The translations under genes and the position numbers were made by a program. A stretch of 61,729 nucleotides of DNA, the filler included, from Dirinaria sp. TL-2023a (Eukaryota), in NCBI GenBank assembly GCA_051941275.1. It is 6 parts of 6 records of this genome, joined end to end, with 100 filler letters (N's around TTAATTAATTAA, not from the genome) between each part and the next. Parts side by side here need not be neighbours in the genome. Positions count along the whole stretch, not along the records: positions 51,542 to 61,729 come from JAVEBF010000969.1; 5 more parts are not named here. One strand, written 5' to 3'. Below, in pieces: positions 10,229-61,729 of this stretch (within the stretch, counting starts at the first letter, position 1; every line of letters begins with the position of its first letter). Below the pieces are notes generated by a model that had not been told where the DNA came from, made no database searches, and saw only the letters and a program-made list of their open reading frames with translations.

Positions 10229-10328
10229 NNNNNNNNNNNNNNNNNNNNNNNNNNNNNNNNNNNNNNNNNNNNTTAATTAATTAANNNNNNNNNNNNNNNN
10301 NNNNNNNNNNNNNNNNNNNNNNNNNNNN
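10229..10328. other. Artificial contig-joining linker N44-TTAATTAATTAA-N44
   Basis: The same 100-bp spacer recurs five times. The palindrome gives stops in all six frames. Confidence 0.98.
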
Positions 10329-20552: not shown

Positions 20553-20652
20553 NNNNNNNNNNNNNNNNNNNNNNNNNNNNNNNNNNNNNNNNNNNNTTAA
20601 TTAATTAANNNNNNNNNNNNNNNNNNNNNNNNNNNNNNNNNNNNNNNNNNNN
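20553..20652. other. Artificial contig-joining linker
   Basis: N44-TTAATTAATTAA-N44. Confidence 0.98.
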
Positions 20653-30857: not shown

Positions 30858-30957
30858 NNNNNNNNNNNNNNNNNNNNNNNNNNNNNNNNNNNNNNNNNNN
30901 NTTAATTAATTAANNNNNNNNNNNNNNNNNNNNNNNNNNNNNNNNNNNNNNNNNNNN
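30858..30957. other. Artificial contig-joining linker
   Basis: N44-TTAATTAATTAA-N44. Confidence 0.98.
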
Positions 30958-41153: not shown

Positions 41154-41253
41154 NNNNNNNNNNNNNNNNNNNNNNNNNNNNNNNNNNNNNNNNNNNNTTA
41201 ATTAATTAANNNNNNNNNNNNNNNNNNNNNNNNNNNNNNNNNNNNNNNNNNNN
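41154..41253. other. Artificial contig-joining linker
   Basis: N44-TTAATTAATTAA-N44. Confidence 0.98.
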
Positions 41254-46534: not shown

Positions 46535-49500
46535 ATGGCGGATGAAACAGAGAGTGGCCCACCTGCAAGTTCCCAGTCCATAGCGCAGGGTACAGGTCAC
46601 TCCGCAGCTCCATCACCTACCCGGGGTCACAATGAAAATAATGTATCAGTCGTCCCACCCAACGCGCTCCCCCCACAGCCTCAGCCCGATCCAACGTCAT
46701 CTACCCAACCTACCCTTCAAGCCACACACCCAGAGTCGCGACTTGTGAACAACTCCTCGTCCGCTCCCTCCGTCGCCGCAGGACAAGCTGCAAATGCCAT
46801 GGATTCAAGCGGTCCGTCTCCCTACGGCACCAGGTCAAGACATCGGACTGGGAACTCAAGGCCGAATTACGCAGAGGATCGCGACATAGATGGAGAGTAC
46901 GAATGGCCTACCACAAAGAAATCTCAAGCTCCTCCAGCGTCCACGCCTTCGAGCCAGTCCCAAACGGTCGATAGCGACAAATCGTCAGGCATCAACACCC
47001 GCCGTTCGTCCACAACGGCTTCGGCAGCGCCAGGAAGCAAGCAAGTGACATCGACCTCGAAAGATCAGATACCGGGAATGTCGAGCTTCTCGCTTGGTGG
47101 GGAGAACCCGACCTCGGCTCCACCACCGACAAGGAAGCGCAAGGCTCCTGGCAGCAACGCCGCTCCCAACACCTCAGCAGGCACCGAGTATATACCTGCG
47201 CATGGCAATACTCGAAAGCTGGTTGTTGCCTCAGCGAGCCATTCTCGAGAAACAAACATGATGAGTTTTGAAGGCTCAGGAGCGTATCTCAGAGATGGCA
47301 AACTTGAAGCGGACGATGGAACCATACTGGCAGTCGATGGTATATACTCTCGCTACCACAAATTTCGTTCTATTTGGCTATTCATTTCATCGTACACTGC
47401 CGCTAACTCGTGTATAGATAATGTCTACCTGGTATGCGAGCCTCCTGGTGATCCCTACTACCTTGCTCGTATAATGGAGTTTGTTCACACGAAGAACGAT
47501 CCAAACCTACCCATAGACTCCCTCAAAGTCAACTGGTACTATCGACCAAGGGACTGCAACCGGAAGGTCAACGACACTCGGCAGGTCTTCGCAACCATGC
47601 ATTCCGATGTCTGCCCCCTCACATCTGTTCGAGGAACGTGCCAGATATCTCACCGCGATAGTATAACGGACCTCGATGAGTATAGAAAGACAAGAGATAA
47701 CTTCTGGTACGAGAAGATGTTTGATCGATACATTCATCGATATTACGAAATCATACCTACCGACCAGGTAATCAACGTGCCGGCGCGTGTCAAAAAAGTC
47801 CTTGACGAGCGGTGGAAATTTGTAGTCGTCGAACTTGGACGGGGTAAGGAATTGACGAGTGCTATCAAAACATGCAAACGGTGTAGCGGATATTGTGCCA
47901 GGTAGGACATAATTCCACGCGTGCACACATTGTGACTTACAATTCGATACAGCAATGATTCCGTCGACTGCGCGATGTGCAAGAACACTTACCATATGAG
48001 TTGTGTGCAGCCCCCCCTTCAAAAGAAGCCATCCCGAGGTTTCGGCTGGTCTTGTGGTCCGTGTAGTCGGAAGCAGGAGCGAAAACTCGAGGCTCGAAAC
48101 ACTCCACTCGTAGGAGACAGAGCTCGTGAAGCCGAAGAAGAAGAATTGCTTGAAGAAGAGGAAGAAGAGCCCAACACGTCCGCAGACCTAGGTAACGGAA
48201 GCACACAGAAAGATAAGGACCCACAGAGCGCAGGCCCCAAACCAGCCACAGCAGATCAGATCGCTCAGGCTAAGATGTGGCCCTACAGATATTTTGGGAT
48301 CCATTGTCGCGTAGAAGATGCTCTTGATTTTGATGATCGAATATATCCACGCGCAAGTTCTCGTTTAGGGCCAAAGCATCAAGCGAACGTGCATGTCTGG
48401 CATGGCCAACCTGTCAAACTTGTTAAACCAGCTGAAAGCAGGCGAAAAAACCTCAAAGGCGGTAATCACAAGAAAGATTCAAAATTTACGAAGGAAGCTG
48501 TTGCAGAAGTTGAAATCAACAAAACAACCAAAGAAAAGCGGGCAAAATGGGTTATGGAAGAGCCGGCCGGCTATGTTGCAAGAGGCGAAGATCATTCAAA
48601 CAATGATCCTGCTAATACTGCGAAACTCATGTTTAGGATGCCGCAAGTGGGTGAATCTTCTTCAAGAGGGCTTGACGATCATCCAGGTGCAGACCTTGAT
48701 CTGGAACACCGCCAAAAGATCATCGAAGATTACATGGAAAACGCTAAAGAGAATGTGGCAGCAATCATAGGAGTCTCAAAATTTTCCGCGAATTTTCTTG
48801 ACAAAGCCTTGGAACTGCTTGTTGCAAATAATTATGCTGCAGAGCCGGCACTGGAGCAACTGAAGACGATGAATCGAAGAAGGGATATCAAAGATCCTGA
48901 ATTCAGCCCTGAGGAGATTAAGAAATTTGGAGAAGGTGTCAAGAAATACGGGTCGGAACATCGCTTCATATTCAAACACGTCGGTAAATCGCACAAACTT
49001 GGTGAGATAATCAGATTCTATTACATGTGGAAAAAATCACCTGCCGGACAAGCGATTTGGAACAATCTCGAGTCAAGAAAAAGCAAGAAATCAGCAAAAC
49101 AAGTCGATGCCAAGCTTGTCGACGATGTTGCGGATGATGTTGATGATTCAGCTTTCGACAATGCCAAAGCGTCGGCCCGCAAGAGAGGCTTCCAATGCAA
49201 ATTTTGCGATACAAGACAATCCCCGCAGTGGAGACGAGCGCCAAATACTGCTCCGGGGACCACTGTGCCCATCGACCTGGCTAGCAAGAACAGTAAGGAC
49301 AAGAGTGCACATCTCATGGTCGCACTCTGCCAACGTTGTGCTGGCCTTTGGCGAAGGTATGGAATCGAATGGGAGAACGTCGATGAGGTGGCCAAAAAAT
49401 TGGCAAGCGGAGGAGGGCGCTCATGGAAGCGTAAGATCGACGAAGAACTTCTCGGAGAATTTTTGAAGGCGAATGAAGTCAGCTCGATCGGGATAAGTAG

Positions 49501-51441
49501 TCAAACTGCGGCTACTGCTTCTTCCGTGGGGGTTGAAGTGCCTTCTGGACTGACCATTCAACCGGCTCAGGACGGACCTAGGAAAAAGCAGAAGACCGTA
49601 CCCGAGACTCAAAATGTTCAGAATGCCGTTTACACAGAACCTCCTAAGAAGAAAGTGGTCGAGAAGCCCCCAGAACCACCATTGGTTCCGGAAGCGCCGA
49701 GAATCCGGGTCTTGCCATGCGCAGTCTGCGACGAGATGGAACCGCTGGGCAATCAACATCTTTGCTGCCGACATTGCAGACTTACTGTGCACAGGAACTG
49801 TTACGGTGTTCCCGAAGGACGCTCGGAGAACAAGTGGACTTGCGATATGTGCGCCAATGATTCCTCAAGTCAGATATCCACCTCCTATGAATGCATATTG
49901 TGTCCGATCAGACCTATAGAGCAGGAGCTGATGGAACCTCCAAGAGTCTCGCACAAGAAAAAGGGTGACCGAGAACGAGAAAAGGAAAAATTGGAACGTG
50001 AGTTGGTCCTCGAGAAGACCAACTTATACTATCGCGAACAGGAAGCCAAAGGTCGACCTCTGCACCCAAGAGAGCCCCTAAAAAGGACCTCGGGCAACAA
50101 CTGGGTCCACGTGATCTGCTCCATGTGGGTACCGGAATTGCGATATGGGGACGCAAAGCTTTTAGAGCCGGTGGAAGGAGTCAGCGCAATCCCGCAATCA
50201 AGATACTTACAGACTTGCAAGATATGTAAGCGAAACGATGGAGTCTGTGTTGCTTGCAAGCAGTGCTCCATCACCTACCATGTTTCTTGCGCACAGCGAC
50301 ATGGCCACGTCCTGGGCTTTGACGTGACTCCTGTCAAAGGCTCGAGGAGGGATGCTGTCAGCGTGCTTACTCTGGGGACTGAGACCGGTAATGCGACGCC
50401 GGTCGTATATTGCAAGGAGCATACTATCAAAACAACAGTACATCTTTTGAACGAAGCCATTGAAGGGAGCCCGCTCAACGCCCTGCAGCTATTTGCGCAG
50501 ATGATAAAGCAAGCCGATACTTCGCTGACTGGTACAGTACGCAAAGCCGCCAATATCGTATCATCGTCGAGGGCCATCAATCAAATGGTCAATCCTATTC
50601 CTGGCCATAGGAATTCAAACGCTTCTGCTGCCGCCGCTACCACTAAAGCTGCTCGGGTATCACCGGCGACCATGACAGTCAAATCCGAGGAGGTTGACGA
50701 GGAGGGCGATCGAGTGGTGTATCTAAACGAAGCCCCCCCTCCGGAGCAGCACTCTAAAAGGTGCGCCTCGTGCAACAGTGCTTCTAGCCCGTTGTGGCAC
50801 AAGATCCCGATAAAGGCTTTGAATATGTCTGCTCGACCCCTAGCGCCTTCAGATGATTCTGCACTGTCTCAAGCGCAATCATTTGAACATCCGCCGTTGA
50901 CCAATGGCCATGTTGGGGGCAGACCCAGTGCTGACTCGCCAGATCATTCTCAACCCGATGTACCGAGCCAAGTGACCGACAGAAATTCTCAAGCACCTCA
51001 AGGCATTGACGGAATTGCCGAGACAAATGGCAATGGACATCGGGATAGTCCTGCTGAACTTCCCAGTCATCAGAATCACAGCAGAGAGGGCAGGCGAGCG
51101 TCGAGCCTGGGAATAGAGAGGACTACAGGATTCCATTGTCACAAGTGTCATATCAAGAAACTTCGAAATCCTACACCACCCCCGGCGCCCTTGCCTCAGC
51201 CAGATGACGTCGTATTCGACGCTCGCACTGTTCACGAGAGAGAAGCGGCGTCTTCGCCAAGAAGGCCAGTATGGAACGTTCCTGCGGTCCCTCCTATGCC
51301 ACCTCAAGAGCCATTCAGCTATCCACCTCCATCGGGGCCACAGTCATCATTTCAATCCCGTCTACCGAACGGCGTCCCACATTCGCCCCCTGTAGCGGGT
51401 CCGGCGGTGTTCGAGGCGAGTCGTAGTTGCCACGAGGGCTG
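46535..51441 (+). CDS. SNT2: Snt2 chromatin E3 ligase (BAH, PHD, ELM2, SANT, GATA-like Zn fingers); 3' end cut by contig end
   Basis: BAH (CEPPGDPYYLARIMEF..VNWYYRPRD), PHD (YHMSCVQPPLQKKPSRGFGWSC), ELM2 (RIYPRASSRLGPKHQA), SANT (IIRFYYMWKK), and further PHD/ePHD motifs (VHRNCYG, NWVHVIC). Confidence 0.93.
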
Positions 51442-51541
51442 NNNNNNNNNNNNNNNNNNNNNNNNNNNNNNNNNNNNNNNNNNNNTTAATTAATTAANNN
51501 NNNNNNNNNNNNNNNNNNNNNNNNNNNNNNNNNNNNNNNNN
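51442..51541. other. Artificial contig-joining linker
   Basis: N44-TTAATTAATTAA-N44. Confidence 0.98.
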
Positions 51542-52248
51542 GACGCAGAGTGATCGTTTTGAACACATTTTTGACTCAATGATCGCTCGATTTCAGCGTT
51601 TTTCTAACACTCTTCGAGTCGACGCGAAAAACTATCATGTTTTTGAATTTTCGAATTCTCAGTATATTTTTGCGCGTCGACAGCGTGTTGACGCTGTTGA
51701 GTTTTTGTGTTAATACGATCATTTTTGCCGCAATCATTTTTTATTTTTTTTTTCGTTTTCGCGTTTTTTTTGATTCAGATCACAATTTTCAGTTCTTTGC
51801 TCAGCTGACGTTTCGACGATGTAACAATAACGTTGACGCGTGTTGTTCTCTGTGCGCTCGCGATGCTCATGATCGTTATTTTCGCTCAATTGCTTTTTTT
51901 CTGCACGTGTTTCTTCTTTTGTACAGCTTTTTTAAGTCTGCTGATCATTTTCTCAAGTCGCGTAATCATCGCGTCGCTATCATTTTGTGTGATCGAGATA
52001 ATTGCGATTTCGCTCTGAAACGTTTTTGCGCGAATCATGTCGAACAGATTGTGCAGTTCAGTCATCGACATCATTTCGCTGACATTGATTTTTTTAAACT
52101 CATAGAGTCTCACAATCTTATTTATCTCATTCAATATTTCGTTCGATTTTGATATTTTTTTTTGCGAAGACGTCTCGATGATGTCTCGTTCATTTGTCGA
52201 CGTCGCGTCGATCGCGTTCATCTCATCGCGACGATCAGAGTGAATCGC
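51542..52248 (-). mobile_element. Hypermutated transposon relic, probably the 5' part of a non-LTR (LINE/Tad-like) ORF1/gag
   Basis: AT-rich, with a single CC/GG dinucleotide in about 700 bp. The minus frame gives a coiled-coil stretch, then KSN*AKI (compare SWAxVA of fungal LINE ORF1), ELKIVI*I and KTLKSSDH*VKNVF, with TGA at Trp-like positions. Confidence 0.6.
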
Positions 52249-52443
52249 GGGCCCCATCGTCAGTGGTAACCCTCAGTAGCTCTTCGAATTCAAAGGTAGT
52301 TTTAATTGATAATATGATCGAGTTCCTCAATCGATTTATAATGTTTCCCCAAAATATGTGTTTTTCTATGTAGATATTTGATCTAAAAGAATATAGACAA
52401 ATCGACACATCGTTATCGATTTACTGACAAAAAAATTATCAAT

Positions 52444-52577
52444 GAGAGAATAGTCATCGAGAGAACTGTCATCGAAAAAACTGTCATCGAGAGAACTGCT
52501 AACGAGAGAACTGCGAAGAGGGGACTGCGATCGAGAGAACTGCGAATGAGAGAACTGCGAACGAAAGAACTGTCATC
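52444..52577. repeat. Nine-copy ~15-bp tandem array, consensus GAGAGAACTG(T/C)(C/G)A(T/A)C
   Basis: Units: gagagaatagtcatc, gagagaactgtcatc, gaaaaaactgtcatc, gagagaactgctaac, gagagaactgcgaa, gaggggactgcgatc, gagagaactgcgaat, gagagaactgcgaac, gaaagaactgtcatc. Confidence 0.92.
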
Positions 52578-52858
52578 GTACAGAGCTCCTGAAACATTTG
52601 AAAATCTTTCCCTTTTCGTCCTGTGTGACTCCGAAATGAGCTATCAGATGAGACTTGTTGTTCAGAATTCTAAAGATCCTTATTTCATTTCTTGCTCGCT
52701 TGATCGAATTATTTACAAATATCACAGGATATTATCATGCAGAAGTGAAACGACTGAATATCTCAAGAGCATCTTCCTAGATCGGCGGCGATAAACCTAA
52801 GAGCTCATCAAGTGAAGTATCATGACATTTCTGATCGTACCTAAATGGGTTTTCTATC

Positions 52859-54971
52859 TTATGCCGGGTGAACTCTCTGAACGTCCGACTCATCCACCTC
52901 GATGATCGGCCCCGCGTACTCCTTGCGTCCTTTAACGCCGTAATAGAAAAGACTAAGAACGACCACCGATCCCCAAACCAGGCAGTTGTAATTCATGGTT
53001 GCGGCAGTAACCGCCGAGTCGGCGGGCCAAAAACTAAAGAACCAAGCTGTGGCTAGGAAGGCACAGACGACACCATTTAGTATGATTCCCGCAATCCCGG
53101 GAATATGCCATGGACCCCACGTCAGTGCAGCTCCAATCGTGTTTGTCAGGGTTTTGTCGGAGTCATCGTACAGTTGGATGCCACCGGTGCAACGGCGATA
53201 GAGCAGGAGGGACGTGGCCACCAAATAAGAAGAGTAGAGCCCCGCAATGGCGAGAGCTACTAGGTCTTCAAAAACAGTAGAGGAGCCGAAGTTGATCAAG
53301 GAAAGAAGGACGGATACGAGGGCTGTGAGGCCTACGGCATATATTGGAACCGAGGTACGTTGCTCTACCTGTTGCGACCGGAGTGCGTCAGCTTCAACCT
53401 AGTCATTGCTCGAGGTTTGGGTACAAGGGGAACTGATACGTCGCAGGAAGTGGAATGGAGCGGTTCACCTGCGAGAAGAACTTCCACCCAGGCACCCCGT
53501 GATCTCGTGAGAATGACCAAAACTGCCTGGAAGCCGCAGCAAGACTAGATGTTGTTGCGCAGATTTCCATGACCGCAATGATGGCCGTCATAGTAATCGC
53601 CCCTCCAGCAGAATTAGTCGCTGTGAACAATATCTGCATGAACGGATAGTCCGTGGGAGAGGCTAAAGCGGCATCGACATCTCCAATGCTATACAGGACG
53701 GCGATCAGCATAGCAAATCCTAAGATGCCGTTAAGGACATAAGTAGTCAATATGGATCTCGGTACGACAAGCGGTGCGTTCTCGATTTCCTCGGACATCT
53801 TCCATAGGGTTAGCATGGCGCAACAACGCGCAGGGGCGAGAAACGTAAACATACATGTATAGCGCTGTCTGCCCCTGCAGAATGGTATCAGCACATGCAT
53901 TACATAAGCTGTATCTAAAGCTACCTGAAAATGTCCACAACATTCCCAGGATGCCGATCATGAACGACAGACCCTGCGTCTGCCATTCGCCGCCGTTCGA
54001 AAATGTTGCAAAGACCTCGGCCGTACTTTGGTGCGGCGCAAGTGTCACAAGTGGGATCACCACTGCAAAGAATCCAAATATATGTAAAAGAAGCATCGTG
54101 GCTTCGAATCGTGGAAGCAATAGGCCTCCTCTCGTATTGATCAATACAGCGAAAGCTACCACAGCCCAACTCATCAAAACTAGATGGTATGGCTTGGGGG
54201 CGTAGTTCGGGTTGCCGAGGATCACCATGCCTTGGATAAGCGACGCGGAGAGGTAGGCACCTGAAGCAGTATTTGCTTGCCAGCCGCATACGGTGAGCCA
54301 GCCTGTGACCTATGAGATGCTCGTCTGGGAAGGTTTACCACTTTGGAAGATTTAAATACCCGTGATGTAGCTCAGTAAATTATGCATCGAAGGAGGAGCA
54401 AGCATTGAGACCCAGTGATACTGTCCTCCAGATGTAGGTGCCCTGCATTCCTAGTCATTACAAGCAGGTTTGAGATGGAGAAAGACAATACATGGATGCC
54501 AGCTCACTAATAACGGTGAATGAAAGCATGACTCCGATCCAGACGAAGAGGAATTCGTAGACCAGACCACCAGGGCCGCCACTAACGTATTCAGTGAGGG
54601 TAGCTTCCTTCGATGCAATTCATCCGCTTACTTGCTGAGTCCAAAAGTAAGTGTGCTTTCTTTCGTCAGTGACTTGTATTCGCCAGCATTAAGCCGTTAT
54701 ACTCACGTCAGCACAGTCTCCCATGCTATCAAAACCGTACAAGTGAAGCCTAGAATTGAGAGGAAGCCAAAGTTTCTCTAGGGCAAAGTAAGCTCCAACG
54801 ACTGGGGAAAAGAAAAGTCCTGTCGGGCCACACTTTCAAAACAGGCTTCTTTCCTAGGCGAAGGAGAGCAGCACGATCTCTCTCTGGGAACGGATTCGGT
54901 TGAAACCAGTTACTTGTCGGTTTGGTCCCGTGACGATTGCGCGGAGCCTTTGGCAGGAAGCCCTGTGCCAT
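52859..54971 (-). CDS. APC-family amino acid/GABA/choline permease; start approximate
   Basis: RLGKKPVLK|RNFGFLSILGF, GGPGGLVY, APTSGGQYHWVS, GADSAIH|MSEEI, SRQFWSFSRDHG and MNYNCLVWG. Many short introns. Confidence 0.9.
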
Positions 54972-56520
54972 ATTGGTATGTAGGGGAATAGATGTTGATG
55001 GTCACGAGTAGCGCATTCATGTAGACATCGTGGTGGAACGCGGCTTTCAGAAACACCTGTGGACAAGATCCAGTCCAAGCGCAAAGCATGAAGGGAAAGA
55101 GATCGTGAACACAGCGGAGATAATGTGAGCTGCTGTTACAATGCTGCATAGAAGCGGAAGAGAGACCGGTCGGGAGATGTGTGACATTAGCCAATGGATT
55201 GCTCAGGTTACGCGAACAAATCATCATCATTCGGAAAGTCTTCGAGCAGGAGTCGCACTGCATTTGGACCCCTCAAGTCAGCATCTGATCAAGTTGCCTC
55301 GTTGCCTTGCCGCATGGGGGTTGCATGACAGAAGAGCTGGAGTAAACTCTTATAATTTTACCGTGCATGAAAGGCCGATCATTTCCCGGTTCTATCTGCG
55401 CATTGTGACTGTCTCTCCTCCGGAAATTACGTAGATACATCCACCCACTCCAGTGGCTCAGCCGCATAGATAAGGGACACGGTCGGCATCAGGGGTTGTT
55501 CTGATGGGCGCCTTCCACACTCATTAGGATCCTTGGATGGCGTCGATGACACCGTGGGCGTTGACAGAGCATTGGCTGTTTTCTTGGGTGGGAGAGCCAA
55601 GAAGAATATATGTCATGTCCTGAGTGCAAGAGGCTCTTTGAATGTCGCGCTGGATGAGCGACCACGGGCCTGATAGAGATGCAGTCATACGGATGCCGCG
55701 TATGAGTGCACCCTTGCGTCTTTCACCCACCTCTTCGTTGAATGTGGTGGTAGATGCAGATCACTCCACAAATTCAGCACATTGGTAAGATACAAGTAAG
55801 CTGGCTTGCTGCATGAGCGACCACGTACTGGTTAGCGTGTTCACCCGCGCTTCCAATCACGGCTATTCTTTCCCCTTTTCGGTTTCGCGGCCGTCCAATC
55901 TAGGCTAGAGCTCTGCTGGAAGAGCAAAATCGAAACTGACAATGCGACGTATTTCACTTCGTCCTATTTTGCGATCGTTGCCCACCCCTCTCCGATTGAG
56001 CCACTGTGCCACATCAATGGACCTGGCTCGGTCGCCCGAGTGGTAGGAGCTTTGTTCCAGACGCTGAGGAACATGAGATTGTCCTATAGACGACCTTATG
56101 CTAATCCATTCTCCACTTCAGGATCCAGGGAGTCGTATCTCGAAAATTTGTTCTGCTTGCATCGACGCCTTATACTCTGCCTCTCGGAATTTATAACCAA
56201 TGATCTCTTTTCCAGTTGGACCATTGTCTTCGGACAATATGGTCATCCTGCATGTGCGTACGGAAAGCCTCATGCAGCAATACCTGGGCGGGGGCTGAGT
56301 TCTTGTATGGACATAGAGGAATGGCGGATCTAAGCAATTGCTGACCACCATCCCTTACGACCTCTTATGCCATAGACATGAGGGAAATCGCTTCTGAATC
56401 TTTATCCATTCCCCATCTGTGGCTTTTCTGAGCTAATTCACCTTCCCTACTCGACGGCACGGCTCGTCCCCTTTCGACGTGGGAGCTTTTTTCCTCGAAA
56501 CCTTCTTCTGTGCAACTCAT

Positions 56521-57818
56521 ATGTCTCAAACGGCGTTCATCACAGATCGGAACAAAACGTCCTTAATCCAGGTTATTACATGGTTCTTGCTCGCGACCAC
56601 CATTCTAAGCGTAATCGCTCGAGCCTTCACAAAAGCCGCTGTGATTCGTTTTGTTGGGCCCGATGATTATCTAGTCCCTATAGCATTGGTAGGTGCTCCC
56701 CCATAAACGCTATATTTGTGACGAAGTAGCTCACGGCACACGGGATATTAGATCTTTGCCATTGGACAGGCGATCGCGGTGACTATTCAAACCACAAATG
56801 GAGTGGGGAAGCCAACGTCCGAATTAAGCGCAGATCAAATAGATGCTATCTTGAAGGTTTCCAATGTGTTGTGCATCGCATAGATGCTAGCTCTAATCTT
56901 GCGGACAGGCGGGATACGCTGCTTCGCTCCTATATATAATGAGCCTACTATTCTCCAAGCTACCAGTCTTGGTCCTCCTCGGACTGATATCGCCTTCTCT
57001 TCGATACAAGCGCTTGCTCGTTTTCTCAGCTGCATTTATTGTCCTCTGGGCCTTGACTGCTGAGTTTGTCTCAGCATTTCAGTGTCGCTCTCCAGCGGTA
57101 TGGGATTACTTGGCCCAACAGTGTTTAGATCTCGTAGGTCTACCCGTTATCTTCGTCGTTTTCGGCAAGTTAATATGACCGCTAAAATTTTCCTTAGGCC
57201 ACTTGGTGGACGTATTTCGAAATCACGAACGGTGTAATTGATCTATGGTTGATCTTGTTGGGGTTTAGTCTCTTGTGGGGTGTGCAAACTTCTTTGAAGA
57301 GAAAAGTCTCCGTGCTACTCGTTTTCGGAGGGCGCTTACCGTAAGTGTACCGACACTATGTGTTCTTTTCCTAATTGATATCCAGGGCCGTTGCTGCCAC
57401 GATTTGCAAATTGGTGTTCTGGCGCAAGACCTGGGGAGGTTCCGACCCCGTCTTTGACACCTGGTCTGTTATCATTTGTACCCAGATTATCCAGTGCCTT
57501 AGCATCACATCGGCTTGCATCCTCTACCTAAAACCTTTTCTCGAAGCTCTCACTTCAGGATTCATCCATGGCGACGATCTACGTCGACGAGGTGTGATTA
57601 GTCCGTACACTCTCGCATCGAGTAATGTCGCATCGGCCTTCGCGTTGAAAAATCGGGAAGAAAGCAGTGATGTGGATGGAGTCTCATCATCGCAAAACCA
57701 ATCCGTGGAAACTGAACCGGTTAGCGAGAGGGCACAGGATCTTCTACCTGAGATCTCACCTGTGTCATCAATGCTGGATATAGCAAGGATGAATTTTGTG
57801 ATAGAGAGACGGATCTAG
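56521..57818 (+). CDS. PTH11-like (fungal rhodopsin-domain, non-CFEM) integral membrane protein
   Basis: Spliced TM segments with GPDDYL, NGVGK, FSKLPVL, AFQCRSPAVWDY and TSACILYLKPFLEALTSG. Confidence 0.82.
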
Positions 57819-58463
57819 TTACATCACACACTACTTCCAACATTTTTCTCTAATAAGTGTATATTACACTTTCCAAAAGACCGGTGCCAGCATCAGAAAA
57901 CTCAGCTGAGGAACATCTGCATGCGTCGGGTAGGCATAATCAGCGCACCGTCGTGTTTAAATTATGAATCAGCCGACTAGATTTGATATTGCGAACGAGA
58001 AGAGAAAGTTCTCACAGTCAAGCACAGGGGCCCGTGATCTTGTGACCACTCGTACGCATGTCCTAGAGGTAAACAGACGGGCCTGAATAGACCCTCGCCC
58101 TGGTACTCTAGTGTCAGTATTGCGAGTAGCTTAAGATTCGACACCTTGGATCCGTCATCATTCATGATGCAAGCCTACATATTTCATCTCTTCAGGTAGA
58201 TACATGTACCTTATGCAGGTACCTATCATTAGGTAATAGCACGATTGTGATCTTTTAAAAACCCCAAATGTAGGGTTGTAAGTGATGTTACAACCCACAC
58301 CTTCATTACATTCGGAAATCGCACCAAACATCAAGTCACGTACTTTGTCGGCGCTGACTCTCTGCTACTCATCAATCAAATTAAAGCCTGCGACTTAACT
58401 AAGAGCCATTCAAGATCAAACCTGTCATCAATTTTCGATATAGGTTGCGCAAAACACTACCTC

Positions 58464-59311
58464 ATGGCTCAGACCGATCGCTCGAGCTCTCTCACAACTA
58501 TCCTTCTCTTCACTCACGAAGATCAATACTCATCTGCTACGGAACATGCATTTCTCGCTAAGGCAGGCGACGGCACTCTGCCGGATCCGGCGGTCTGTAA
58601 GTGGCTCGTTCAAGACAAGTATTATCAGCTGGCATACGTGAACTTCATCGGTGCTCTGCTCGCGAAACTCGATCTCTTGCCGAGCGTATTTCCCTCTCAT
58701 TCAGCCGAGCGTCAGGTCGGAGGAGAGAACTTGTCACGAACAACATTCGATCTTCTTGTCGACTCTTTAACGGCCATCCGGCAAGAGATCGACTTCTACG
58801 ACAAGACGGCCGACAAATACAAGCTTGAGCTACAATATGCACCACCGAGTAAGACAACAGAAGAGTACATGAATCTATTTGCGGACGCAAGCGTCAAGGA
58901 AGTTCCACTTCTGCATGGGCTCGTAGTGTTGTGGGCCACCGAGCACGTATGTCATAGATTTTCCTTTCTGCGGTGTCGAGTACACCACTCCACCCTATTA
59001 AACAGGATTGGCCAGCGTCTAATCAAAACTCACAGTGCTATCACCGTGCGTGGACGTATGCATCACGTCAAACTGAAAGCGCTGCACAGTCACCTTTCGG
59101 CGGCGGCGGTAGTGATACCGGTGCAGTGGCAGCTCTCCACAAGGAATTCATCCCCAACTGGACGTCGGAACAGTTTGGCGGATTCGTCGAGAAATTGGCT
59201 TCAGTCACGGATGCTTGGGCGGCGCAGGCCGGCGACAGGGAGCACGACACATGCCAGCGTCTTTGGGCGCGTGTTCTGCAGCTGGAAACCGAATTCTGGC
59301 CGGAGGTCTAA
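58464..59311 (+). CDS. TenA/THI-4/PQQC family (heme-oxygenase-like fold) protein
   Basis: ATEHAFLAKAGDG, WLVQDKYY, VVLWATEH|CYHRAW, FIPNWTSEQF and LETEFWP. One intron. Confidence 0.85.
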
Positions 59312-59589
59312 ATAAGCTCAGGGGATGCTCCTGTTATTCGGTCACTGTAACAGACGCGCATGTGTCATTTCGCTCAAGAGCATGTTAGGTTCTTATCCAG
59401 AATAGAATGACCTGCTCTTAAATACTAACAGTGTGCTCTTTCCACGGCTTGCCATACCGATGAGCACTTCAACTAGTACAGTAGTTCAGTCGAGAATTTC
59501 AAACATAGAATGACACGCTTATCACGATCCCATTCAAGACCACTAAAGGACGTCCATAAATGCAATAGACTGAGGAGTACTCACGGCCT

Positions 59590-59960
59590 AAAGAACAGTC
59601 ATTCATTACACAGTCTCATCGCTCAAATACTTTTTTTCGTTATTGCAACTCAGAATCTCGATGAAAAAGAGTTCGTAACTTCATCAACGAGCGCATATGT
59701 GAATATTTCACAAGTATTATTTTCTCTTGGCAATCTGATTTGAGAATTGACGAAGACAATTATCTCAGAGTATAGTTCGTCCACTGATTCTGCAGGGATA
59801 ACTAAGTTTATATCAGAAAACAGTGCTTTATAGATAGATATGATATTGACGAGAGTATTAATCATGTGGAACTAAATCCATGAGAGCGAGATTTGAGTAG
59901 AAACCTCGCTCGCTAGCGTTCTTAAGATTTCTTCGCGAAAGCTCTGATACTATCACTCTG
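59590..59960. repeat. AT-rich, CC/GG-poor patch, probable degraded repeat remnant
   Basis: No CC/GG over about 59590-59728 and few afterwards. Same compositional signature as 51542-52248, but weaker. Confidence 0.4.
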
Positions 59961-60184
59961 AACCCGTGACAACTCAGCACCAATCGAGGACATTATAGAT
60001 TGTCCACTCAATGCCGGGTCTTTTCCTATCATAGATCCATCGTACTTTCATTGTGAAAGGCAATAGGCTCAGTAATTGAGATACTTGAGATATAATTCGA
60101 TCTCGCGGAGTCTATTCGGATGGAAGTACATCGTACACCTACGTCGATAAGTGGAGCTATTTCCACTGATCGAGACCCCTGAGT

Positions 60185-61168
60185 TTACATCCACTGCCTA
60201 TTTCCAAACTGCGAGACGAATGCACCGGCATACCCAGTCTCGATGCTGGCCCTCTCCCAAAGCGACCTGATATCTTGGACGGCTGCTTCTACGGTGACTG
60301 GACCTTTGAAGTGAGGCGCATAGGCTTGAATCTTGCCCATGAATTTCATCAACCCCTCGGTTTGTTTTGGGTTCACTGTGGGTGTACACATTAGTAAAAT
60401 GCCCAGAGATTTCAATCTCGAGGACGCAGGTGTGTACCGTCGCTAGTGTGGCCCACTTCCACCACTCCCGGGCTCATGCTGAAGACGAGCACACCGTCTT
60501 TCTTGTATTGTGCGCTGAACTTGGCCACAATGATGTTCAAAGCCGCCTTGGAGGCAGAGTATAAGGCAGAGTTCTCAATGTCGAAGTTGTTGATCCAGTC
60601 AAGATCGGCATGACCACTGCTGATGGCGATGACCTTCTTGGTCTTGCCCTTCAAGACAAGAGGCATGAAAAGGTTGAAGAAGTGGATGTTACCGGTGACA
60701 TTGGTCTTGAATAATTTGTCTGCAACGTCGTCAAGCTCCTCAGGCTCTTCACCCCTATTGGAAAAACTTCGTTAATCTCAGATACTAACCAGAGGGAAGT
60801 AGACCTACAATTCACCAATAGGTGAATAAGCGTCGAAGTGGGTAAGGAAACCTCCGTTGCCGACAAGATAGTCAATGCCACGCTCACCAACAATCTTGGC
60901 AGTGTCGGCAGCGGCTTGCTTCAGGCTGGCATAGTTGGTGAGGTCTCCACGAACGATGTGGACGTTAGAACGCTTGCCCAACTCTGTTGCCACTTTCTGT
61001 TCAACGGCAGCCTTGTTGCGGACCACACCGACGACCAGATTCTGCGGGTCTTCGGAGATGCTCTTAAGGAGCCCAAACTAGGCCAGATTAGACAAAGGCT
61101 ATGCGCGATAGGGCAAGCAGACTTACACCGATTCCGCTGGACACCCCGGTAATTGCGTACACAGACAT
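60185..61168 (-). CDS. Short-chain dehydrogenase/reductase (CsgA-like classical SDR)
   Basis: MSVYAITGVSSGIG (TGxxxGIG), IDYLVGNGG, KTNVTG, KVIAISS, catalytic YSASK and SMSPGVV. Multi-exon. Confidence 0.9.
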
Positions 61169-61729
61169 GTTGAGTGATTCGAACTTGAATGGGTGCGAGC
61201 TGATGCAAATAAGATAGAGTAGACTGCGATGTGTTGAGCGATTCCACATTGCCAAGTTCAACTAGCTCCTGATATATGGCAAAAAGCATGCAAGAGGTGC
61301 TTAATAATGAGATAGCTTGATTACGATAGCCAATATTCTTGATTTATAATTCGAATATTTGCCTTGCTTCGCATGACATCTGCATCTCCATTGTGCATGG
61401 ATCATGCACAGTGATAGCTATCTCAAGGGATTTTGAGCTTCTTCTCGATCGTGTCCTGTCACACGCTATGCAATGGTCATGCAATGAGAATCCTACTCTG
61501 CTTTGGTGATGGTTTCTCTGAGTACTTATGCCATCTGCCCTTGGCGTAATGGAATATTTGGAGGCAACGGCGCTAAGAGGTTCTCATACTACTAGGTACC
61601 CAGGCAAACTAAACAATTATGTGCACATCTTGTTGGAACTTGTGACCTACGACGTGCATGAATTGCTTCATTCAGTGGATTCTACGCTACCTTACCTCTA
61701 GGCCGCCGCTAAGCACACACCCCCCCTTC

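Follow-up and report, generated by a model that had tools for sequence, protein, structure and literature searches.

A probable LINE relic stripped of CC and GG in Dirinaria sp. TL-2023a points to a RIP-like mutator preferring CpC

A tract of 707 bp at one contig end of Dirinaria sp. TL-2023a has lost nearly all of its CC and GG dinucleotides. Judged by its homology, it belongs to the 5′ end of ORF1 of a non-LTR (LINE) retrotransposon, and it was probably inactivated by a RIP-like, repeat-limited mutator that changes C to T on both strands and prefers CpC; we give this reading a probability of roughly three in four. The window, that is, the whole stretch of DNA analysed (61,729 nucleotides), consists of six pieces in descending order of size (10,228 to 10,188 bp), read as whole contigs and joined by non-biological N44-TTAATTAATTAA-N44 linkers; any feature crossing one of these (10229-10328, 20553-20652, 30858-30957, 41154-41253, and 51442-51541) is artificial. 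The last linker joins the fifth contig to the sixth (51542-61729), and since the hypermutated tract (51542-52248) begins at the first base of the latter, it is truncated on its left side.

Regarding its composition, the tract (A143, C143, G134, T287; GC 0.39) has one CC against the 28.9 expected from base composition, and no GG against 25.4, hence one against about 54, so that the near-total loss reported from a hand count is borne out. The sole CC left, within a GCCG, is at 51728-51729 of the plus strand, and on the opposite, minus strand it encodes a single Gly (GGC). When the tract was shuffled 20,000 times with its composition preserved, CC+GG had a mean of 53.9 (SD 6.1) and a minimum of 30, while the lowest value among 1,116 other segments of 707 bp was 32, with a mean of 82.3; the longest CC/GG-free gap of the whole window, 521 bp, is located in the tract. 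Restoring the ~81 C/G implied by the mean CC+GG density brings the GC from 0.39 to 0.51, which is the level of the window.

As for the other dinucleotides, CpG, CpA and TpG are still abundant, as had been stated, with 63, 43 and 48 occurrences (27.1, 28.9 and 54.4 expected), and TpA is scarce (21, with 58.0 expected). TC (77, with 58.0 expected) and GA (49, with 27.1) are enriched and CT (35, with 58.0) and AG (22, with 27.1) are depleted, giving TC:CT and GA:AG of 77:35 and 49:22, compared with 1.08 and 1.06 elsewhere in the window. The two standard RIP indices, for which canonical RIP is called at TpA/ApT > 0.89 and (CpA+TpG)/(ApC+GpT) < 1.03, are both negative in the tract, 0.33 and 1.20, respectively, so they overlook it, as anticipated: they are built on CpA>TpA, and a process that erases CC and GG while leaving CpA and TpA untouched is invisible to them. 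The RIPCAL-style ratio (CpC+GpG)/(TpC+GpA) is instead 0.008 in the tract versus 0.84 in the rest of the window. These values bear on whether the tract derives from old canonical RIP (CpA>TpA), from the decay of methylated CpG, or from sunlight damage at dipyrimidines, all of which appear very improbable. TA, CA and CG stand at 0.36, 1.49 and 2.3 of expectation, against the first two; the sunlight signature mutates TC, and here TC accumulates to 1.33 of expectation. What recommends canonical RIP is that RIP has been reported, by the standard indices, in other lichen fungi (PMC3897900, PMC12542154, bioRxiv 10.1101/2025.11.25.690456, in the parts of these sources available).

The tract contains a remnant ORF of 123 codons on the minus strand (51886-52257), starting at the conserved ATG of its family and ending at the TGA at 51886-51888. 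The minus strand is favoured as the coding one because the first codon positions are purine-rich (71% A+G); the antisense frame with the same codon boundaries has 2 stops only and is also nearly open. Searched with HMMER against 1.84 billion representatives, the ORF has 11 protein relatives at E ≤ 0.001, six of which possess neither Pro nor Gly. The closest ones, known as proteins only, from ENA assemblies, are P0023 (84% identity to the ORF), P0001 (77%), P0022 (67%) and P0024 (59%). Another relative, P0006, represents 11 near-identical proteins from several contigs, and a scan of metagenome contigs with it returned 11 loci, among which the 100% match, L001, is close to intact.

About 2.9 kb of L001 (1130-4013) is collinear and nearly gap-free in the other ten loci. 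Its ORF1 begins with MPAIHP, where the window has MGPAIH, it includes a Cys/His-rich stretch, and ~1.9 kb downstream it is followed by an Exo_endo_phos_2 domain (PF14529, E 6.9e-7, 29.6 bits with a cut-off of 27.4); the endonuclease domain downstream of ORF1, together with the ~2.9 kb of collinearity, indicates that the element is a non-LTR (LINE) retrotransposon. The window aligns with L001 1206-1917 from 52275 down to 51548, on the minus strand, with 55% identity and 16% transversions, which supports the earlier proposal of a transposon relic; on this alignment, the tract appears as the initial portion of ORF1, cut off by the contig end, and the window holds only the start of this ORF. Beyond about 52275, there was no homology to the upstream regions of the relatives. 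No Pfam family matches ORF1, and Pfam searches with the ORF and its pieces gave nothing above noise; a word-based search limited to longer proteins had no match to the ORF, and no second copy turned up elsewhere in the window by blastn or tblastx with the tract as query. A pattern scan with the three closest sequences gave 589 matches, with none confirmed as a related locus, and a BLAST with purine/pyrimidine recoding, to be taken as a guide only, gave one clear match, L009 (77.6% over 714 columns), along with many spurious others.

With respect to fungal APE-type LINEs, the likeness is given by the Cys/His-rich ORF1 followed by the PF14529 endonuclease domain in L001; it differs in having an ORF1 with no Pfam family and no in-frame reverse transcriptase downstream within L001. 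The collinear part of L001 yielded no reverse transcriptase, and an RVT_1 match in L001 is on the opposite strand. Tad1-like elements are reported as common in Xanthoria (bioRxiv 10.1101/2025.11.25.690456, in the part of the preprint available). Two minor points concern L001. Its otherwise "intact" ORF1 ends at a stop (1886-1888) where P0010 has Trp, and the frame stays open behind it; active-looking copies may already bear one Trp-to-stop change or use read-through. In addition, the adjoining DNA (L001 1-1000) has a GC of 0.19-0.29, CC+GG counts of 0 and 3 (9.1 and 21.0 expected), and TpA/ApT of 1.21 and 1.09, a composition indicating that the young LINE copy lies beside an old, more completely degraded block.

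Past its initial MGP, the minus-strand ORF lacks Pro, Gly and Trp, in agreement with the sequence-only reading, which had also placed three TGA stops at Trp-like positions. The latter statement stands for the first stop alone: the TGA at 51886-51888 aligns in phase with a TGG (Trp) of L001 and with W in P0004, P0005, P0006, and P0010. The second in-frame TGA (51775-51777, minus strand) is opposite Tyr or Phe, being TAC (Tyr) in L001, and the third stop (51604-51606, minus strand) is a TAG, out of phase with respect to L001 and at no Trp position.

The direction of the changes was established by comparison with P0024, the closest relative that still has Pro and Gly, and with L001. Over 80 residues aligned to P0024, 47 are identical and 33 different; C>T or G>A on the window side is the sole way to account for 22 of the differences, and the same transitions on the P0024 side for 7, whereas the remaining 4 agree with neither. 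Because P0024 is available as a protein only, third codon positions and part of the neighbouring bases had to be deduced when assigning the context of the 22 window-side changes, which is CpC/GpG in 17 cases, CpT/ApG in 5, and CpA or CpG in none; finding 17 or more CpC/GpG out of 22 has a binomial probability of 2.6e-8, assuming that 21% of C sites are CpC. This supports the 5′ C of CpC as the target, as proposed from the sequence, and the lack of any change at CpA or CpG is a further argument against canonical RIP and CpG decay. Both strands are involved (9 C>T and 13 G>A), and the consequences for the protein are regular: in the window copy, TCN (Ser) stands for all five Pro of P0024, GAN (Asp or Glu) for all four Gly, and ATC (Ile) for three Thr, from ACC>ATC. 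Among the seven differences assigned to P0024 are His>Tyr, Ala>Val, and Met>Ile, changes of the CpA/TpG type, and this protein retains its Pro and Gly; the P0024 copy may have been exposed to a different mutation spectrum.

When L001 is the reference, C>T in the window copy, sorted by the 3′ neighbour, amounts to 28/50 at CpC, 49/103 at CpT, 20/67 at CpA, and 31/126 at CpG. Compared with the reverse change, T>C (71/349), CpA and CpG are at background and CpC and CpT are raised (Fisher, p = 1.5e-4 for CpC and p = 3e-4 for CpT, each against CpA+CpG). Taken alone, this reference does not separate CpC (0.56) from CpT (0.48; p = 0.39), and again the two strands contribute, with 10/20 for sense C(pC)>T and 18/30 for (Gp)G>A. 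CpT is a weaker second target in the window copy, which corrects the sequence-only reading.

The same comparisons leave native CC/GG poverty, whether by compositional or by selective avoidance, or an artefact of sequencing or assembly, hardly tenable as explanations. It is true that the element part of L001 is somewhat low in CC+GG (0.56-0.77 of expectation over segments of 500 bp); nevertheless, both L001 and P0024 keep CC and GG, and hence Pro, Gly and Trp, and the codons for these residues in the relatives are opposite TCN, GAN, and TGA in the window copy. Overall, CC and GG in L001 reach 0.88 and 0.75 of expectation, so the near-intact relative is not natively CC/GG-free. As for an artefact, the same scar occurs in independent assemblies.

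In all ten diverged metagenome loci, CC+GG is 0 in the part matching P0006, where 35-44 are expected, and over the whole loci (4-17 kb) CC and GG are at 0.00-0.05 of expectation, TC and GA at 1.3-1.6, CA and TG at about 1.5, TA at about 0.55, and GC at 0.29-0.32. The canonical RIP indices are negative here too, namely 0.54-0.62 for TpA/ApT and 1.58-1.78 for (CpA+TpG)/(ApC+GpT). The pairs L003/L004, L005/L006, and L010/L011 resemble one locus in two assemblies, and one member per pair entered the pooled counts. Over eight copies, the Trp codons of L001 are replaced by TGA in 31 of 32 cases, by TAA in one, and never by TAG; the 79 Gly codons begin with GA in 56 cases, AA in 19, and AG in 4, and the 184 Pro codons with TC in 65, TT in 59, CT in 16, and other combinations in 44. 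In the metagenome copies, about 50% of isolated CC became TC, 18-35% TT, and 6-13% CT, and none was kept; per long copy, TC was found 60-73 times versus 13-17 times for CT.

The mutated fractions were tabulated over six copies (L002, L003, L005, L008, L009b, and L010) with L001 as the outgroup, excluding the duplicates and the divergent L007 and L009a: they are 0.77 for CpC, 0.48 for CpG, 0.36 for CpT, and 0.19 for CpA, with no effect of the 5′ neighbour (range 0.41-0.50). Therefore, CpG is a strong second target in the metagenome loci (0.43-0.81 of expectation), whereas it is spared in the window copy. Considering that many CpG were lost in L002-L011 and that their source organisms differ from that of the window, a second process, or a different order of preference, may operate in those organisms.

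These data also touch on an APOBEC-like editing of the cDNA or RNA during retrotransposition, according to which the copies would have been mutated before insertion. APOBEC3G acts in a CC context, deaminating the 3′ C on one strand; the resemblance lies in the CC dinucleotide and in the substrate, a retroelement. Here, however, it is the 5′ C that is changed, isolated CC turning into TC about five times as often as into CT, and the two strands are about equally affected, both in the window copy, as counted above against L001, and in L002 (73/108 and 80/109). Both strands being changed, with the 5′ C as the target, makes cDNA editing unlikely; moreover, sequence outside the LINE and a tandem array are affected, and on the whole we regard this explanation as quite improbable.

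Turning to the edges, the tract ends on the right at 52248, ~27 bp before transposon homology ceases to be detectable (about 52275), and the edge is sharp: the next 100 bp (52249-52348), an unmutated island directly upstream of the ATG, hold 11 CC/GG with 8.0 expected. RIP behaves likewise at the border of a repeat. Neither the first 9 bases at the 5′ end of the ORF nor the presumed 5′ UTR is mutated, and the mutator reading must further assume that this portion did not belong to the repeated sequence. A second CC/GG-poor stretch follows at 52349-52520 (172 bp; 1 versus 9.9 expected) and extends into a tandem array of ~9 units of 15 bp (52444-52578, plus strand), placed between the relic and the permease gene. 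The array has the consensus GAGAGAACTGTCATC, and its units vary mainly by G/A in the first seven bases, with the heads GAGAGAA (6 units), GAAAAAA, GAAAGAA, and GAGGGGA. Among these, GAGAGAA, GAAAAAA, and GAGGGGA match what a GG>GA rule would leave; as internal evidence for such a rule, the array is suggestive only, because plain parsimony makes GAGAGA the ancestral form and not GGGG. Then, the exons of the amino-acid permease (PF13520, PF00324; 52859-54228, minus strand), which are the unique DNA neighbouring the relic, have an ordinary composition.

This arrangement is relevant to the main alternative, a chromatin-wide decay independent of repeats, in which silenced or methylated DNA would deaminate with a CpC (CpY) bias and the transposon would merely be located there. 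In its favour, the relatives are devoid of CC/GG over entire blocks of 4-17 kb, irrespective of what these contain, the 172-bp stretch outside the transposon homology is also poor in CC/GG, and the dependence on repeats in this genome is a deduction, as no second copy occurs in the window. On the other hand, the tract stops within about 27 bp of the end of homology with ordinary sequence in the following 100 bp, the extra 172-bp stretch is itself a tandem repeat, and L002, L003, L005, and L010 differ pairwise by 10-12% transitions and only 0.2-0.4% transversions, which fits a burst on near-identical copies. Regional decay is thus unlikely, albeit the strongest of the competing explanations. 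For the repeat-limited mutator, the contig-end position, the multiplicity of the family elsewhere, and the coincidence of the edges suggest that repetition would be the trigger in this genome, and by analogy with RIP the mutator may recognise its targets through it.

The mutator envisaged would read the base 3′ of the cytosine on both strands, with CpC attacked to saturation, then CpT in part, and CpA and CpG spared in this genome. Repeated rounds would exhaust both dinucleotides, CC being converted to TC and GG to GA, so that runs of C would finish as T...TC and runs of G as GA...A. In the coding sequence, Ser or Phe would take the place of Pro, Asp or Glu that of Gly, and TGA that of Trp, and the GC would drop from about 0.50 to 0.39. 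A cytosine methyltransferase homologue of the RID or DIM-2 type, or a deaminase, with an altered context preference is the candidate for the chemistry.

Among the known systems, the closest is RIP of Neurospora crassa and other Pezizomycotina, with its RID-dependent and DIM-2-dependent pathways. The likeness comprises C:G to T:A changes only, on both strands; transposon-derived DNA with a sharp edge against the neighbouring gene; and saturation, with stops and missense changes created and copies that differ almost only by transitions. The difference is the context, which is reversed here (CpC first, CpA and CpG spared), with no enrichment of TpA and both standard indices negative. The CpG-biased hypermutation of MATE in Aspergillus nidulans and the TCG>TTG hypermutation in Microbotryum resemble this case inasmuch as the preferred context varies between fungal lineages; they differ because CpG is fully spared in the tract, in which 31 TCG are found alongside the excess of CpG in 707 bp.

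As for the literature, the biases listed in the available part of the RIPCAL paper are CpA, CpG plus CpA, TCG, and CpT accompanying CpA; a CpC index is defined there, with no case of CpC dominance (PMC2621366). According to the accessible text of a 2025 survey covering 1,239 fungi, the CpA preference is common to RIP-like defences (PMC12543289), and the papers on Endocarpon, Cladonia, and Xanthoria, in the portions at hand, assess RIP from GC content or with the standard indices and give no table of contexts (PMC3897900, PMC12542154, bioRxiv 10.1101/2025.11.25.690456). Full-text searches of openly accessible papers found no report of a CpC-dominant hypermutation of repeats.

We lean, with some reserve, towards a broader statement: that a fungal lineage, including this fungus and the sources of the metagenome contigs, has a RIP-like mutator with an order of preference inverse to that of Neurospora, CpC first and CpA last. 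If so, it would imply an enzyme of the RID/DIM-2 type with a re-tuned target pocket, or a different deaminase, and genome defence would be systematically under-called in such fungi by surveys based on indices. For fungi using a process that erases CC and GG, estimates of repeat content, of GC compartments, and of whether a genome defence exists at all may be wrong; furthermore, the reversed preference would be a natural variant with which to ask which protein sets the target of RIP.

Finally, the remainder of the window is ordinary in content. The other genes of the sixth contig are typical intron-bearing fungal genes, for the amino-acid permease, a TENA/THI-4 protein, and a short-chain dehydrogenase, and the remaining contigs carry RAD54, HAM1-like, MFS, and BAH/PHD genes; no DNA methyltransferase was seen among the large ORFs of the window. 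A stretch of 142 bp (59587-59729; GC about 0.34) in intergenic DNA is CC/GG-free; it was discarded as a further CC-hypermutated tract since it resembles ordinary AT-rich intergenic DNA, and it may be due to chance or be a small relic. At the end of the fifth contig, two adjoining ORFs on the plus strand (46535-51439), one with a BAH domain and the other with PHD fingers, are probably one chromatin-reader gene that reaches the contig end.
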